Below, piece after piece: positions 4,588 to 14,445 of a stretch of DNA of 14,445 nucleotides; position 1 is the first letter of the stretch, and each line of letters begins with the position of its first letter. The notes below the pieces were generated by a model. The model saw only the letters and a program-made list of their open reading frames with translations, was not told the origin of the DNA and did not search any database. This DNA is from an uncultured Saprospiraceae bacterium (GTDB lineage: Bacteria > Bacteroidota > Bacteroidia > Chitinophagales > Saprospiraceae). The position numbers were made by a program, and so were the translations under genes. The stretch covers positions 1-14,445 of the forward strand of contig CAZHOV010000142.1 in the NCBI GenBank assembly GCA_964534315.1, in the 5' to 3' direction.

Positions 4588-4623
4588 GGAGGCTCAAAAC
4601 ACAAAAAAGTGCTTTGAGCCTCC
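4588..4623. terminator. Bidirectional intrinsic terminator between the convergent floT and phhA genes
   Basis: GGAGGCTCAAA (4588-4598) and TTTGAGCCTCC (4613-4623) form an 11-bp perfect stem with a 14-nt A-rich loop. It sits in the 47-nt gap between the floT stop (4580) and the phhA stop (4628). Confidence 0.55.
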
Positions 4624-4627
4624 TTCA

Positions 4628-5356
4628 TTAAGCCGCATTTCTACTCCATTTGATCTGCTTTTCCAACCCGCCTAGCGAATCGAACAACTGGTCATAATTT
4701 TCCAATATGAAATACTTACCTTGTAACTGATCCTTTCTAAAAGGGGTTTGAATAATTTGCTCAATGGAATATGCCTTTTTTTCTTGATGGTCTGTAAATA
4801 TTGACTTGGACTCTAGAAAGGAAGACAGTATCCCTGCCCCGTAAATTCGTAGTCCTTCTCGTTCACGGATGAGCCCGAATTCAATGGTAAACCAATAGAA
4901 TTTTTCTAATTGTTCCATGTAAGGTGCCAGTGCTGTAGATCTAACACCCAACTGGCCAAACTCCTGAAGGAAACAGGCATAATCCGGGTCTGCCAGTAGT
5001 GGAATATGACCAAAGATATCATGAAACATATCAGGTTCTTCCAGGTAATCCAACTGCTTTTTGGAGCGCAGCCAGGTAGAGGAGCAGAATTTCCGTTCCG
5101 CTAATAATTCAATAAAGGTTTTTGCCGGAATAAGCCCCGGTACAACGTGGATCGACCAGCCCGTCTTATCCATCAAATAACGATTTAGATGATCAAAGTC
5201 CGGGATTTTTTCCTCGAATAAGACAGACTTCATCTCCTCCAGGTGATGAAGATACCGTTGGCTTGCTTTGTCTTGAAGGTTCTCCTGTTGGCGACCAAAT
5301 AAAATCTGCCATACTTCATGGTTCTCTTTGGTGTACGCATCATACTGCTGTTTCAT
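4628..5356 (-). CDS. phhA: Phenylalanine-4-hydroxylase, monomeric bacterial type (biopterin-dependent aromatic amino acid hydroxylase)
   Basis: 242 aa. The iron-binding motif PDMFHDIFGHIPLL (HDxxGHxP) and downstream conserved residues are typical of bacterial PAH. No phhB (pterin-4a-carbinolamine dehydratase gene) is adjacent. Confidence 0.9.
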   Translation of the reverse strand: MKQQYDAYTKENHEVWQILFGRQQENLQDKASQRYLHHLEEMKSVLFEEKIPDFDHLNRYLMDKTGWSIHVVPGLIPAKTFIELLAERKFCSSTWLRSKKQLDYLEEPDMFHDIFGHIPLLADPDYACFLQEFGQLGVRSTALAPYMEQLEKFYWFTIEFGLIREREGLRIYGAGILSSFLESKSIFTDHQEKKAYSIEQIIQTPFRKDQLQGKYFILENYDQLFDSLGGLEKQIKWSRNAA

Positions 5357-5380
5357 AACAGAGGGTTTAGATTAGTGATT

Positions 5381-5414
5381 AAAAACAAAAAACCCGGCTC
5401 CTTTCGGAACCGGG
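5381..5414 (-). terminator. Strand-specific intrinsic terminator/attenuator hairpin in the phhA 5' leader
   Basis: The minus-strand RNA reads CCCGGUUCC-GAAA-GGAGCCGGG. This is a 9-bp stem with one G-U and a GAAA tetraloop, followed by UUUUUUGUUUUU. It ends 24 nt before the phhA ATG. On the + strand the G-U becomes a C-A mismatch and there is no U-tract. Confidence 0.6.
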
Positions 5415-5441
5415 TTTTTCGGTGAATGATCGTATAAAGAG

Positions 5442-5521
5442 CAATCTATACTATTACTTACCTACTCTACTGGGTTCCCAAAGGGTGGTAGAATAATAGC
5501 AATAGTAATAAGTATAGATTG
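5442..5521 (-). promoter_or_regulatory. 80-nt imperfect inverted repeat (candidate attenuator 1:2 stem) overlapping the Tyr codons and stop codon of the leader ORF
   Basis: CAATCTATACT (5442-5452) and AGTATAGATTG (5511-5521) pair perfectly over 11 bp. ATTACT (5453-5458) pairs with AGTAAT (5504-5509), leaving a 1-nt bulge. TCTAC (5466-5470) pairs with GTAGA (5488-5492) around a central loop. Confidence 0.45.
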
Positions 5522-5534
5522 GTGCTTTTTTCAT
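5454..5534 (-). CDS. Candidate Tyr-codon-rich leader peptide (26 aa: MKKAPIYTYYYCYYSTTLWEPSRVGK) for attenuation control of phhA
   Basis: ATG at 5532-5534 (- strand) and TAA at 5454-5456. Six Tyr codons (TAT/TAC) occupy codons 7, 9, 10, 11, 13 and 14. The ORF lies between an AT-rich promoter region and the terminator hairpin upstream of phhA. It is too short to appear in the ORF track. Confidence 0.45.
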   Translation of the reverse strand: MKKAPIYTYYYCYYSTTLWEPSRVGK

Positions 5535-5575
5535 TACGCTCTCAATATAAGAGAAATTCAAGAAAAAAAATACAA

Positions 5576-5615
5576 AACAATTTATTTTATTTTTTTAAAA
5601 ATAAAATAAATTGTT
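5576..5615. repeat. Perfect 19-bp AT-rich inverted repeat with a 2-nt spacer (AACAATTTATTTTATTTTT-tt-AAAAATAAAATAAATTGTT)
   Basis: Read directly from the sequence. It lies in the divergent region between the phhA leader (ATG at 5534, -) and the Rpn-like fragment start (ATG 5647, +). It overlaps the TTG that the ORF track used as the start at 5611. Confidence 0.85.
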
Positions 5616-5646
5616 TAATTTTACAGAATCCTTTAAACCACATGCT

Positions 5647-5922
5647 ATGGAAAACAAGCCCTTTGATAAGATCTTGAAAGAAAATCTGGAAGCGTTAGTC
5701 ATTCCTTTAACTAAAAAGTTATTGGGATTTCAAATTGTTCGATCAAAACAATTGACAGAGAAATTACAAACTACGGTTGAGAGAGAACCTGATTTTATAC
5801 GCATTATCGAAACCGATAAGGAAGAAAAATTTATTCTCCATTTGGAGTTTCAAACTGCAAACGATCCGGAAATGGAGTTTCGACAAGCTGAGTATAAAAT
5901 ACACTGTAACCTAAATTTCTAA
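5647..5922 (+). pseudogene. N-terminal fragment of an Rpn/YhgA-like PD-(D/E)XK nuclease family putative transposase, truncated after the catalytic-core motif
   Basis: The fragment reads MENKPFDKILKENLEALVIPL...FILHLEFQTANDPEMEFRQAEYKI. This matches the h-h-E-h-Q ... M..R...Y core of Rpn-family proteins. It stops about 10 residues later, where full-length homologues continue for ~200 aa. Confidence 0.5.
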
Positions 5923-6107: not shown

Positions 6108-6644
6108 TTGATTTATTTAGGGAATAGAAAGATGAAGATGAAGAACGAATTATCAGAGGAATTCAGCATTTCTGGTTATGAGATAAGAAATATTAAAGAG
6201 CTCGAATTTGCACAATTAGTTCGATCTGATATTCCGCAAGAAATTGTTTTAGCCATTTTAGGAGATTTCCATGATAGTCCTCCGGAAATGGTCATTCAAA
6301 GAATTTTAAATCGACTTTTTGAAATTAGTAGGGGGGAGTTGGAACTCCAGAAGTATATCCGACAGTTGAATATTTTATCAAGACTTCGTAAATTACAACA
6401 TCTAACCATTAAAACGATAAAGAATATGCCTATTTCATACGATATTCAAAAAGATGAACTTTTTTTAGAGGGAATGAAGAAAGGTTTGGAACAAGGTCGA
6501 GCAATGGCAAAGAATGAAAAAATGAACATCATCAGAAATTTATTGCTATTGGGAACGCTTACTATTAGCCAGATTGCTAGTTTAACGGAGACGGAAGAGT
6601 CTTTGATCTTGGAAATTAAAGCTGAGATAGAGGAGGAAGAATAA
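6108..6644 (+). pseudogene. C-terminal fragment of the same Rpn/YhgA-like family gene (DUF4351-like tail), in a different frame from the N-terminal fragment
   Basis: The C-terminus reads DIQKDELFLEGMKKGLEQGRAMAKNEKMNIIRNLLLLGTLTISQIASLTETEESL. This matches the G-x3-G-repeat plus LL...QIA.LT tail typical of Rpn-family C-terminal domains. The first ATG is at 6132. The frame is open from 6045, and stop codons separate it from the 5' fragment. Confidence 0.5.
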
Positions 6645-13536: not shown

Positions 13537-14445
13537 TTAGTTCAGTATCAGCTTGCCACTCATTTTTTTACCGTTATCTAGCACGATCTGAAAAACATAA
13601 ATTCCTTTAGAAAGTCCATTTGGTCGATATTGGAAAATGGGGGTGTTTATTATTTGCCGATCAATCCTTTTTCCCATTATGTCATATAGCTCAAAGGTGC
13701 CTTCCTCAAACTGATCGTTTATTTCAAAATTTACATGATCTATAAATGGATTGGGGTAGGCGTTGACTCTTAAAACCGCTTTTTTGTTCAACTCATTATT
13801 GACATTTACAATAATGAAATTCTCTCCTACAAGGTGATCCGTTTCATTGGTAATGATCGGTTCGTTAAAATCGAAGTAAATGGCCGCCTCATTGTAAATA
13901 TGTGTTCCTATCGGGTTATCCTTTTGCTGCGCGATCCTAAATTTTACAAAACCGTGGGAGGCAGCTTCGTTTGTGGTACTGTCAGGCAATAAGATGTTAG
14001 GAAACATAAATTTCAATACTTTCATCCCTGTTCCGGTCACTTCAAAATTGTAGGCATGACTACTGGCGCCAAGTTGTAGGGTGCTAATGTCGAGATATTC
14101 TGAAAGGGTATCTCTGATCTCCACGTAAAAAGCAGTATCCGTACCGGTATTTTGAAACCGGATCATATATTCTATATCGGTATTGGGTTCAATAAAGTGT
14201 TCTTCTCCAAAGCCTTTCGGAAACGCGAGTTTATCATTTGGATCAAAGGAGGCGATGCTTTCTCTGCAATCCACATCTTTGAACGGATCGGCGTCGTTCA
14301 TAGGGAACTGTATGACATATCCCAGACTTCCGGGGTCGCCTCCACATCCTTCTACTGCGATGGCAGGATTACTGTAGCCGGGATGACCGGCACTTTGCTC
14401 TGCCTGTAGTCTAACGGTACGGCCCTCAGGCTGATAAATGATAAC
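13537..14445 (-). CDS. 3' portion of a T9SS type-A cargo protein gene whose 5' end is beyond the window. It encodes a conserved beta-sandwich-like domain with a C..S.DPNDK motif plus a Por_Secre_tail C-terminal domain
   Basis: The reading frame is open from 14301 to the window edge at 14445 (...VIYQPEGRTVRLQAEQSAGHPGYSNPAIAVEGCGGDPGSLGYVIQFPMNDADPFKDVDCRESIASFDPNDKLAFP...). The C-terminal ~75 aa (LRVNAYPNPFIDHVNFEI...GIYVFQIVLDNGKKMSGKLILN) match the T9SS type-A sorting domain. Confidence 0.8.
   Translation of the reverse strand, partial: VIIYQPEGRTVRLQAEQSAGHPGYSNPAIAVEGCGGDPGSLGYVIQFPMNDADPFKDVDCRESIASFDPNDKLAFPKGFGEEHFIEPNTDIEYMIRFQNTGTDTAFYVEIRDTLSEYLDISTLQLGASSHAYNFEVTGTGMKVLKFMFPNILLPDSTTNEAASHGFVKFRIAQQKDNPIGTHIYNEAAIYFDFNEPIITNETDHLVGENFIIVNVNNELNKKAVLRVNAYPNPFIDHVNFEINDQFEEGTFELYDIMGKRIDRQIINTPIFQYRPNGLSKGIYVFQIVLDNGKKMSGKLILN

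Follow-up and report, generated by a model that had tools for sequence, protein, structure and literature searches.

The analysed stretch of 14,445 nucleotides (hereafter the window) carries, immediately upstream of a phenylalanine hydroxylase gene on the minus strand, an element that we interpret, with a probability of about 0.8, as a ribosome-mediated leader-peptide transcription attenuator sensing charged tRNA-Tyr and controlling phhA. This assignment, first proposed by a sequence-only reading of the window, is supported by conservation of the element, by ribosome-masked folds, by co-variation of leader and terminator and by -7 boxes preceding the leader. The regulated gene phhA (4628..5356) encodes a phenylalanine 4-monooxygenase of 242 aa (Pfam Biopterin_H), which scored 260.7 bits against the NCBIfam equivalog NF008877 (cut-off 247) and had C. 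violaceum PAH as its top PDB match (1.8e-58); its iron ligands H112, H117 and E159 were invariant in the alignment, and even its nearest homologues were just 57% identical. On its two sides, phhA is flanked by a small divergent ORF lacking annotation and by the gene of a Band_7 protein, and the window holds no adjacent regulator gene (phhR/tyrR).

The leader ORF (5454..5534, minus strand), read from the sequence, extends from an ATG at 5534-5532 to a TAA stop at 5456-5454 and comprises 26 codons plus the stop, encoding the peptide MKKAPIYTYYYCYYSTTLWEPSRVGK. Its coordinates agree with those given earlier for an 81-nt Tyr-rich ORF, the leader ATG lying 178 nt upstream of the phhA ATG (5356). 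Tyr is encoded at codons 7, 9, 10, 11, 13 and 14 (6 of 26), and the regulatory cluster (5493..5516) reads TAT ACT TAT TAC TAT TGC TAT TAT; the earlier count of five Tyr in six consecutive codons was correct, while the order of that run is TAT TAC TAT TGC TAT TAT and not TAC TAT TAT TGC TAT TAT. The short ORF thus displays the clustered codons for a single amino acid that are typical of attenuators. Considered singly, the leader ORF of the window was barely beyond chance expectation. Its Tyr richness is significant because of the evidence at the level of the family, where 20 Tyr-run mini-ORFs were found in the 340-nt zones upstream of phhA versus 4 in approximately 1 Mb elsewhere (~180-fold enrichment), while runs of Phe, Trp or His codons were not enriched upstream of phhA.

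The 80-nt hairpin described between the Tyr codons and the stop region (P1, 5442..5521, minus strand) was recovered, with core arms (5521-5511 and 5452-5442) that are 100% complementary. The Tyr codons form its 5' arm, the leader stop codon falls within its 3' arm and its apical part contains the antiterminator strand, an arrangement consistent with a role as anti-antiterminator or 'off-state' helix. The P1 duplex of the window amounted to -23 kcal/mol (z = -3.76), and the whole leader fold to -63 kcal/mol (z = -6.5 vs shuffles). Between the leader ORF and phhA lies an intrinsic terminator (5381..5421, minus strand) with a 16-bp stem (CGAAAAACCCGGUUCC/GGAGCCGGGUUUUUUG), a GAAA loop and a U-tract reaching 5381; its sequence is CCCGGUUCC-GAAA-GGAGCCGGG followed by UUUUUUGUUUUU, with the stem at 5421-5386 and the tail running to 5381. 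This hairpin (-26.3 kcal/mol) is as strong as had been claimed and ends 24 nt 5' of the phhA ATG, whereas the strand specificity also attributed to it is not strict at the level of sequence, as its 5' side carries an A-tract. The terminator does not end another gene, because the upstream gene is divergent.

The antiterminator strand CUUUGGGAACC (5473..5483, minus strand, leader codons 18-21) aligned with the conserved GGAAyCGG block of the family in the MAFFT alignment. Its target GGUUCCGAAAG (5401..5411, minus strand) runs from the upper part of the terminator 5' arm through the loop to the first G of the 3' arm, and the duplex of 5483-5473 with 5411-5401 amounted to -13.3 kcal/mol. In masked folds of the window, the terminator-arm GGUUCC was paired upstream with a probability of 0.97-1.0 when a ribosome occupied Tyr codons 10-14 and of 0.32 in the free RNA. 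The mutually exclusive antiterminator that was to be looked for by folding therefore appears once the ribosome is placed on the Tyr codons. The same mask led the 3' end of the leader to pair with the terminator 5' arm in nearly all members of the family, and the unmasked RNA folded into P1 plus terminator in many of them. A different antiterminator had been suggested by the sequence-only reading, namely GCUCUUU (5442-5436) with AAAGGAGC (5404-5397); this pairing exists, but it is weak (-7.2 vs -13.3 kcal/mol), was absent from all masked folds and is not the one conserved in relatives. Over the family, z scores against shuffles averaged -2.6 (antiterminator) and -2.1 (P1), and in the window the antiterminator duplex by itself reached z = -1.8, with 13 of 200 shuffles being equally good. 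The terminator remained the minimum-energy structure of the full transcript even under the stalled-ribosome mask, so that antitermination would have to be kinetic.

Placement of the antiterminator strand relative to the leader ORF followed a regular pattern in the family, with median distances of 17 nt from the last Tyr codon to its start and of 2 nt from its end to the stop, and no more than 15 nt separating this end from the stop in 27 of 33 members. For the family, both a 1:2 pairing that hides the antiterminator strand and, in most members, a covering of this strand by a terminating ribosome are predicted. In the window, a ribosome parked at the stop codon leaves the strand uncovered, the probability of upstream pairing is still 0.89, and within P1 the strand is held only by a CCC:GGG mini-helix. 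Termination in the window would consequently have to rely on release of the ribosome and refolding of P1. With this uncovered strand, the low z score of its antiterminator duplex and an imperfect -7 box, the window is an atypical member of the family; its P1 is unusually long and its antiterminator strand displaced.

The same arrangement was present at 41 of 80 phhA loci, distributed over Flavobacteriales, Saprospiraceae and Cytophagales, and the three contigs carrying the closest metagenomic PhhA homologues also scored with the covariance model R1; a Tyr-rich small ORF and terminator thus recur in relatives, where the sequence-only reading had proposed to look for them. A scan for ORFs identified 32 loci in addition to the window with an ATG-initiated leader containing at least three Tyr in six codons and a strong terminator, and extra members had a GTG start or only two Tyr in the leader. 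Cultured bacteria among the carriers are Marivirga sericea DSM 4125 (L060), Psychroflexus tropicus DSM 15496 (L024), P. gondwanensis ACAM 44 (L043) and Planktosalinus lacus (L013). R1, which was seeded by 27 loci with the window left out, recovered the window element at 5385-5534 with 51.3 bits (E = 2e-5), covering the leader ORF over its full length. It further matched 10 non-seed loci at E < 1e-3, every one of them immediately 5' of phhA, and gave no other significant match in 1 Mb. Of 27 runs of three or more TAY codons, 25 shared their frame with an ATG located 18-30 nt upstream, compared to 1 and 2 for the other two frames, and TAT and TAC interchanged inside the runs. Since the frame of the Tyr run is kept while TAT and TAC alternate, the evidence points to translation and not to the RNA alone.

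Each member has a terminator consisting of a GC-rich stem followed by 6-9 U, and compensatory changes were found in 10 of 10 consensus pairs among 33 sequences. For P1, 61% of cells were paired across the family versus 33-46% in slid controls, and the apical P1 helix exhibited compensatory changes in 9 of 12 pairs. RNAalifold recovered the terminator as the only structure from the alignment. Column-wise covariation of the antiterminator did not exceed that of shuffles in the plain MAFFT alignment; in this column test both strands were conserved and divergent members were out of register. A test performed per sequence, comparing the pairing of each leader with its own and with other members' terminators, was substituted for it. 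The leader formed a duplex of -13.3 kcal/mol with its own terminator versus -9.9 kcal/mol with those of other members (p < 5e-5), and of 12 loci whose terminators diverge, 11 had a leader altered to match. At loci L014 and L029 the terminator fits its own leader poorly. Leader and terminator co-evolve, and the peptide sequence is not conserved beyond the Tyr run and the RNA-pairing blocks.

A sigma-70 promoter scan of the window gave no match, as expected in Bacteroidota. A candidate Bacteroidota sigma-A -7 box, TATATTGA (5542..5549, minus strand), is located 7 nt 5' of the leader ATG as an imperfect match to TAnnTTTG, and a perfect TAnnTTTG was absent from 5357-5650 of the minus strand. The -7 box is positioned at -12 to -5 (PMC9723704). 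Among the 33 members of the family, 24 had a perfect TAnnTTTG ending 4-18 nt before the leader ATG, compared to 0.44 expected, and in 21 the box ended 4-9 nt 5' of the ATG. The boxes in these 24 members predict a transcription start upstream of the leader ORF; a start downstream of it, which the sequence-only reading had named as fatal to its proposal, is not indicated. The leader ORF is not preceded by a Shine-Dalgarno sequence, and for most members a 5' UTR of just 0-5 nt is predicted. As 21 of the 33 members have a -7 box ending so close to the ATG, the leader ORF may be translated from a leaderless or near-leaderless transcript. The sequence features of the family suggest that the promoter and transcription start lie upstream of the leader ORF and that this ORF is probably translated.

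According to the proposed mechanism, transcription would begin just 5' of the 26-codon leader ORF. With tyrosine plentiful, the ribosome would pass the six Tyr codons, reach the stop and depart, upon which the long P1 between the Tyr codons and the stop-codon region would form together with the terminator, and the polymerase would halt 24 nt before phhA. With Tyr-tRNA scarce, the ribosome would stall on the Tyr codons, thereby melting P1 and freeing CUUUGGGAACC, which is located at least 13 nt past the last Tyr codon. The freed strand would then bind the upper terminator 5' arm together with the loop (GGUUCCGAAAG) while the 3' arm has yet to be transcribed, leaving the terminator unable to nucleate and allowing read-through into phhA, the product of which would make Tyr from Phe. 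Most likely, phhA would be switched on when tyrosine is scarce, through a kinetic competition between the two structures that the folds suggest.

Several other explanations of the element were weighed against this mechanism. The leader might be translated and sense Tyr, with phhA translation, mRNA stability or Rho-dependent termination as its output and the hairpin and U-tract being merely structural or insulating; the terminator does remain the thermodynamic optimum of the full transcript under the stalled-ribosome mask and, in the window, lies just 24 nt from the phhA ATG. We nevertheless consider this quite unlikely, as the GC-rich stem with 6-9 U in every member, the compensatory changes in all 10 pairs and the co-variation of the leader specifically with the terminator 5' arm would be unexplained if termination were irrelevant. 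A trans-acting factor, either a TRAP- or PyrR-like Tyr-responsive protein or a T-box-like uncharged tRNA, could instead read the UAY repeats and choose between terminator and antiterminator, since the same structural alternatives would serve, the Tyr-codon run, which forms one arm of P1, is conserved as RNA sequence too, and a weak PyrR-site match (23.6 bits) was obtained. Such a factor would not account for the in-frame ATG kept 18-30 nt upstream of 25 of 27 runs (1 and 2 in the other frames) together with an in-frame stop beside the antiterminator, for the synonymous nature of the TAT/TAC variation, or for the spacing of the antiterminator from the Tyr codons on one side and from the stop on the other, which fits a ribosome footprint; with T-box and other Rfam families all below threshold as well, we regard it as very unlikely.

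Highly improbable, in our assessment, is a primary role in trans of the terminated leader RNA of ~150 nt or of the Tyr-rich micropeptide, with control of phhA being secondary. The leader RNA is very stable, and the trp attenuator of Sinorhizobium is known to give rise to sRNAs and leader peptides that act in trans, but the peptide in the phhA family is conserved only in the Tyr run and the RNA-pairing blocks and the element is always found immediately upstream of phhA. That the small ORF is a chance occurrence in AT-rich intergenic DNA, accompanied by an ordinary or bidirectional, non-regulatory terminator, is hardly credible. While the ORF of the window by itself is only marginally improbable and the 5' A-tract could allow the terminator to act both ways, there is no co-directional upstream gene to terminate, the whole arrangement is kept across three orders, Tyr runs are ~180-fold enriched 5' of phhA, and the results on conservation, enrichment, frame and R1 already contradict chance.

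The attenuator that we favour shares with the enterobacterial trpL, hisL, pheL/pheA leader, thrL, leuL and ilvL systems a short ORF in which codons for the sensed amino acid are clustered, as well as the three pairings 1:2 (hairpin), 2:3 (antiterminator) and 3:4 (intrinsic terminator); likewise, a ribosome at the stop codon would cover the antiterminator strand in most members of the phhA-leader family. In contrast to these systems, the amino acid sensed would be tyrosine, the gene encodes phenylalanine hydroxylase, which lies outside the chorismate/prephenate branch, and the phhA leader has neither sequence or model similarity to them nor a Shine-Dalgarno sequence. At gathering thresholds, neither the window nor any of 20 member loci matched an Rfam family, His_leader, Phe_leader and Bacteroid-trp included. 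The best Rfam score was obtained for Thr_leader (RF00506) with 29 bits, below its gathering threshold of 55, and Trp_leader reached 15.7 bits against a gathering threshold of 41. Permissive matches to Thr_leader, PyrR and rnk were sub-threshold and driven by the terminator, and were rejected. No T-box riboswitch was found in 5300-5700 even at E <= 10.

Closer parallels exist within the same phylum, as Flavobacterium psychrophilum has predicted ilvE, hisG and pheA leaders in addition to the Bacteroid-trp motif (PMC9723704), all with the same architecture as the phhA leader. The leader peptides of trpE (MNTFLNNTWWWNNLRQTS) and pheA (MNTNNTFYSNNSFYFYW...) resemble MKRQNTYYYYHLILNKN of the phhA leader, and an N-T pair often ahead of the regulatory codons is common to both groups. 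The genes under the known Bacteroidota leaders are biosynthetic operons (trp, his, ilv and pheA), whereas the element described here would control phhA, and the pheA leader of F. psychrophilum mixes Phe, Tyr and Trp codons, whereas the phhA leader is Tyr-only. F. psychrophilum phhA itself is of a long form with a TSS 20 nt upstream and has no leader. In Pseudomonas and other Proteobacteria, phhABC is controlled by PhhR/TyrR (PMC1173090), which likewise answers to aromatic amino acids at the gene for the same enzyme. PhhR/TyrR is a protein activator at a sigma-54 promoter that induces phhA for catabolism of Phe and Tyr when these are abundant, while the phhA leader is predicted to be a switch of RNA and ribosome that would induce phhA when Tyr is scarce, an anabolic and thus opposite logic.

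Literature searches retrieved no published account of a phhA leader peptide or attenuator with Tyr codons in Bacteroidetes and no described tyrosine leader attenuator. The earlier statement that a leader-peptide attenuator had not been described for phhA therefore stands as far as the searched literature and Rfam are concerned. We place the element among the leader-peptide attenuators, as a new member of the class that is specific to Tyr. Tyrosine is thereby added to the few amino acids for which sensing by leader-peptide attenuation is known or predicted, and the attenuated enzyme is one usually regarded as catabolic and protein-regulated (PhhR/TyrR). The element is absent from Rfam 15 and could become a new family there. 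The approximately 45 natural variants with co-varying leader and terminator, combined with predicted near-leaderless leader ORFs in a phylum that does not use Shine-Dalgarno initiation, offer a useful system in which to study transcription-translation coupling.

PAH is a genetically supported route of Tyr biosynthesis in Echinicola, a member of the Bacteroidota, and contributes to Tyr biosynthesis in Dyella and Legionella as well (PMC7311316); the idea of an anabolic PAH in many Bacteroidota has so far been based on fitness data obtained in a single strain of the phylum (PMC7311316). Leader-less Cytophagales phhA loci are found within a trpB-trpA-DAHP synthase cluster. The element described here implies that PhhA serves tyrosine biosynthesis in Bacteroidota. 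Only tentatively, and with the odds leaning against it, do we extend this to a first Tyr-specific leader-peptide attenuator, widespread in Bacteroidota, with a leaderless or near-leaderless leader ORF, and to PhhA as a regulated, dedicated step of Tyr synthesis rather than a catabolic enzyme. If the former were true, the first ribosome would engage the nascent RNA right at its 5' end, and if the latter were true, PhhA may replace TyrA in these lineages. Induction of phhA by Tyr starvation would constitute independent, regulatory evidence that phenylalanine hydroxylase is anabolic to Tyr in many Bacteroidota, and an anabolic PhhA would bear on how auxotrophy and metabolism are predicted for Flavobacteriales of marine and fresh waters and for their relatives.

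Judged from its sequence, the 242-amino-acid product of the minus-strand ORF at 4628-5356 (phhA) is a bona fide phenylalanine 4-monooxygenase (PAH). It matched Pfam Biopterin_H (1.2e-46) and the NCBIfam equivalog NF008877 (260.7 bits; cut-off 247), its closest relative of solved structure was the Chromobacterium violaceum PAH (1.8e-58), and the iron ligands H112, H117 and E159 were unvarying across the aligned homologues. On the same strand, a 26-codon leader ORF encoding MKKAPIYTYYYCYYSTTLWEPSRVGK extends from an ATG at 5534, 178 nt before the phhA ATG, to a TAA at 5456-5454 and contains six Tyr codons (codons 7, 9, 10, 11, 13 and 14; 5516-5493). A long hairpin (P1; perfectly complementary core arms at 5521-5511 and 5452-5442) has the Tyr codons as its 5' arm and the leader stop codon inside its 3' arm; 24 nt separate phhA from the end of a terminator (16-bp stem, 5421-5386; U-tract to 5381). 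The anatomy described in the sequence-only reading was recovered on the minus strand, with two corrections: the Tyr cluster is present, but two of its codons had been given in the wrong order, and the terminator is strong but, owing to an A-tract, not strictly one-directional as had been claimed. For the entire leader the folding energy is -63 kcal/mol, with z = -6.5 relative to dinucleotide shuffles. Since the gene next upstream of the leader is divergent, the terminator ends no other transcription unit.

Because the leader ORF of the window by itself was only marginally significant, relatives were examined. No nearest homologue of the window PhhA exceeded 57% identity, and 80 phhA loci were fetched with a 25-homologue alignment from a one-genome-per-species set of Bacteroidota and allies. 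Besides the window, 32 loci carried a 15-35-codon ORF that starts with ATG and has three or more Tyr in six codons (e.g. MKIANTYYYYYSILFKELR, MKRQNTYYYYHLILNKN and MNFTHNTYYYYYQAPKGIGNGSVMHMM), located 115-190 nt upstream of phhA except for two lying further off behind insertions, and followed in every case by a strong terminator; further loci had a GTG-started leader or just two or three Tyr. In loci L026 (2754-3000) and L019 (2681-3000), about 230-330 nt of extra, partly palindromic, repeat-like sequence between terminator and phhA accounts for the distant leader. Mini-ORFs with at least four Tyr in six codons numbered 20 in the 340-nt zones upstream of phhA versus four in the remaining ~1 Mb on both strands, one of these four being a displaced leader, while runs of Phe, Trp, His or other residues showed no comparable enrichment in these zones. 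When (TAY)>=3 was searched for irrespective of ORFs, 27 runs came up ahead of phhA; 25 of them were preceded at 18-30 nt by an in-frame ATG with no stop in between, compared with 1 and 2 in the other frames, a bias that argues for the run being read as Tyr codons.

A covariance model of the family (R1), seeded with 27 loci and built without the window, matched the window over its full length at 5385-5534 on the minus strand (51.3 bits, E = 2e-5 in a 1-Mb search). It also recovered ten non-seed loci at E < 1e-3 and four weaker ones, all directly upstream of phhA, with no other significant match in that search. In total, 41 of the 80 phhA loci carry the element, bearing out the expectation that relatives would share a Tyr-rich small ORF and terminator. 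Carriers include Flavobacteriales (Crocinitomicaceae, Vicingaceae, Psychroflexus, Planktosalinus, Mesoflavibacter and Fluviicola), Saprospiraceae and several Cytophagales (Marivirga, Microscillaceae), as well as the metagenomic contigs of the closest PhhA homologues, P0002, P0004 and P0009 (37.7-66.6 bits), one of which has a Y-C-Y-Y-Y-Y run like that of the window. On these sequence comparisons the element is conserved over at least three orders of Bacteroidota.

Leaders were folded individually with masked positions imitating the ribosome. As free RNA, most members formed the terminator together with P1, in which the region around and after the stop codon is paired with the Tyr codons and those preceding them, and a conserved GGAAyCGG block close to where the leader ORF ends is paired with the codons immediately following the Tyr run. 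When a ribosome was placed on these Tyr codons and the transcript truncated ahead of the terminator 3' arm, GGAAyCGG paired with the terminator 5' arm CCGrUUCC in almost every member, so these folds do show an alternative antiterminator of the kind postulated. In shuffle tests the family mean z was -2.6 for this antiterminator pairing and -2.1 for P1. Counted from the first base of the last Tyr codon, the median distance to the start of the antiterminator strand is 17 nt, which places it just beyond a stalled ribosome; from the end of the strand to the stop codon the median is 2 nt, beneath a terminating ribosome, and in 27 of 33 members this distance is no more than 15 nt. Leaders paired better with their own terminator (-13.3 kcal/mol) than with those of other members (-9.9 kcal/mol), a preference reached by none of 20,000 permutations after removal of near-duplicates, and the leader had changed to match in 11 of the 12 loci whose terminator departs from the majority sequence, as in L006 (leader CAGAGG, facing terminator CCUCUG). 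In an unfitted MAFFT alignment, compensatory changes were seen in all ten terminator pairs and in 9 of 12 pairs of the P1 apical helix, and P1 was 61% paired versus 33-46% in slid controls; antiterminator column counts did not exceed shuffles in this alignment, since the two strands are both conserved and the divergent members are placed out of register. The related loci L014 (2874-2988) and L029 (2042-2163) kept the GGAAUCGG block with a different terminator (ACACCUAUUC...), which their leaders fit less well than the terminators found in other members; a recent terminator replacement may have weakened antitermination in these two loci. About ten leaders, including those of L003, L026, L028, L046, L047, L048, L049, L069 and L070, contain a Phe codon downstream of the Tyr run but ahead of the antiterminator strand; the window leader lacks such a codon. 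Speculatively, a ribosome stalled there would cover the antiterminator strand and favour termination, a veto when the substrate Phe is scarce.

In the window, the antiterminator strand CUUUGGGAACC (leader codons 18-21; 5483-5473, minus strand) aligns with the family GGAAyCGG block, and its duplex with GGUUCCGAAAG (5411-5401) has an energy of -13.3 kcal/mol. The pairing originally put forward, GCUCUUU with AAAGGAGC, reaches -7.2 kcal/mol and is not the conserved one; the attenuator interpretation was supported overall, but not in its exact antiterminator pairing. In partition-function folds of the window transcript up to the terminator loop, the probability of GGUUCC being paired upstream rose from 0.32 in free RNA to 0.97-1.0 with a ribosome on Tyr codon 10, 11, 13 or 14. 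The window differs from most relatives in three respects. Taken alone, its antiterminator scored only z = -1.8 against shuffles; its P1 is much longer (duplex -23 kcal/mol); and its antiterminator strand lies 13 nt before the stop, where a terminating ribosome would not cover it, so the off state must depend on ribosome release and P1 refolding. In the complete transcript the terminator was the minimum-energy fold even under stall; we infer that the termination decision must be kinetic, as in classical attenuators.

In 24 of 33 members (0.44 expected), a perfect Bacteroidota -7 box (TAnnTTTG) preceded the leader ATG, its end lying 4-18 nt away, and in 21 this distance was 4-9 nt (e.g. L009 2867-2874 and L016 2865-2872). 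As this box occupies -12 to -5 in Flavobacterium (PMC9723704), the predicted 5' UTR is just 0-5 nt and the leader ORF would be leaderless or nearly so; leaderless mRNAs make up only about 5% of Flavobacterium transcripts (PMC9723704). No perfect TAnnTTTG lies near the window leader, where an imperfect candidate, TATATTGA (5549-5542, minus strand), is found 7 nt before the ATG. These boxes suggest a transcription start upstream of the leader ORF, least securely in the window. The divergent intergenic region of the window also contains, about 40 nt upstream of the leader ATG, a perfect inverted repeat with 20-nt arms (AAACAATTTATTTTATTTTT / AAAAATAAAATAAATTGTTT) and a 2-nt spacer (5575-5616), which is unique in the window (0.02 matches expected by chance) and could be an operator through which a DNA-binding protein controls either the leader promoter or the divergent gene.

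Two divergent ORFs on the plus strand (5611-5922, 103 aa; 6108-6644, 178 aa) had no Pfam or NCBIfam match; the former (MENKPFDKILKENLE...ILHLEFQ) may represent part of a longer gene. At the other end of phhA, a strong hairpin (GGAGGCUCAAA...UUUGAGCCUCC; 4588-4623) with no U-tract on either strand lies between the converging ends of phhA (stop codon, 4628) and a Band_7/SPFH gene (stop codon, 4580) and is probably a shared bidirectional terminator or stabilising element. Elsewhere in the window, two proteins (139-2208 and 13537-14301) carry a type IX secretion C-terminal sorting domain (Por_Secre_tail), a feature that assigns the contig to Bacteroidota.

PAH converts phenylalanine to tyrosine, and a switch using Tyr codons only, without enrichment of Phe runs, makes sense for an enzyme that spends Phe on Tyr. 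Pterin-4a-carbinolamine dehydratase (Pfam Pterin_4a), the cofactor-recycling partner of PAH, adjoins phhA in several leader-bearing loci, either just upstream of the leader and outside the attenuator (L003, L011, L012, L039 and L048) or just downstream of phhA (L028, L083 and L084, overlapping the phhA end in the last two). Among the leader-less loci, phhA of Cytophagales immediately follows trpB (PALP), trpA (Trp_syntA) and DAHP synthase on the same strand (about 1-3000 in L045, L052, L054, L061, L063, L064, L067, L068, L073, L074 and L076), and hisH and hisA/F follow phhA in some; by gene content this is an aromatic-biosynthesis rather than a catabolic neighbourhood. In Echinicola vietnamensis (Bacteroidota), Dyella and Legionella, fitness data show that PAH takes part in tyrosine biosynthesis (PMC7311316).

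The mechanism proposed for the phhA element matches the one at work in the classical trp, his, phe, thr, leu and ilv leaders. Among Bacteroidota leaders it resembles the Bacteroid-trp motif and the predicted ilvE, hisG and pheA leaders of Flavobacterium psychrophilum, whose leader peptides share with those of phhA an N-T pair before the regulatory codons. The F. psychrophilum study lists no phhA leader (PMC9723704); phhA of that species is of the long form, with a TSS 20 nt upstream. In Proteobacteria, PhhR/TyrR acts at sigma-54 promoters to control phhA in the service of catabolism (PMC1173090), a logic opposite to that of the predicted Bacteroidota attenuator. No Rfam 15 family reached threshold in the window or 20 member loci, the top match of the window being Thr_leader (29 bits; gathering score 55). 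In openly available full texts we found no account of a Tyr-codon leader or of any phenylalanine hydroxylase attenuator; an earlier description elsewhere is possible. We put the probability that the phhA element works as the predicted leader-peptide attenuator at roughly 0.8. It is a new tyrosine-specific member of a well-known attenuator class: the mechanism is unsurprising, while its amino-acid specificity, the enzyme it regulates and its predicted leaderless leader ORF are new, as are its implications for tyrosine biosynthesis in Bacteroidota.
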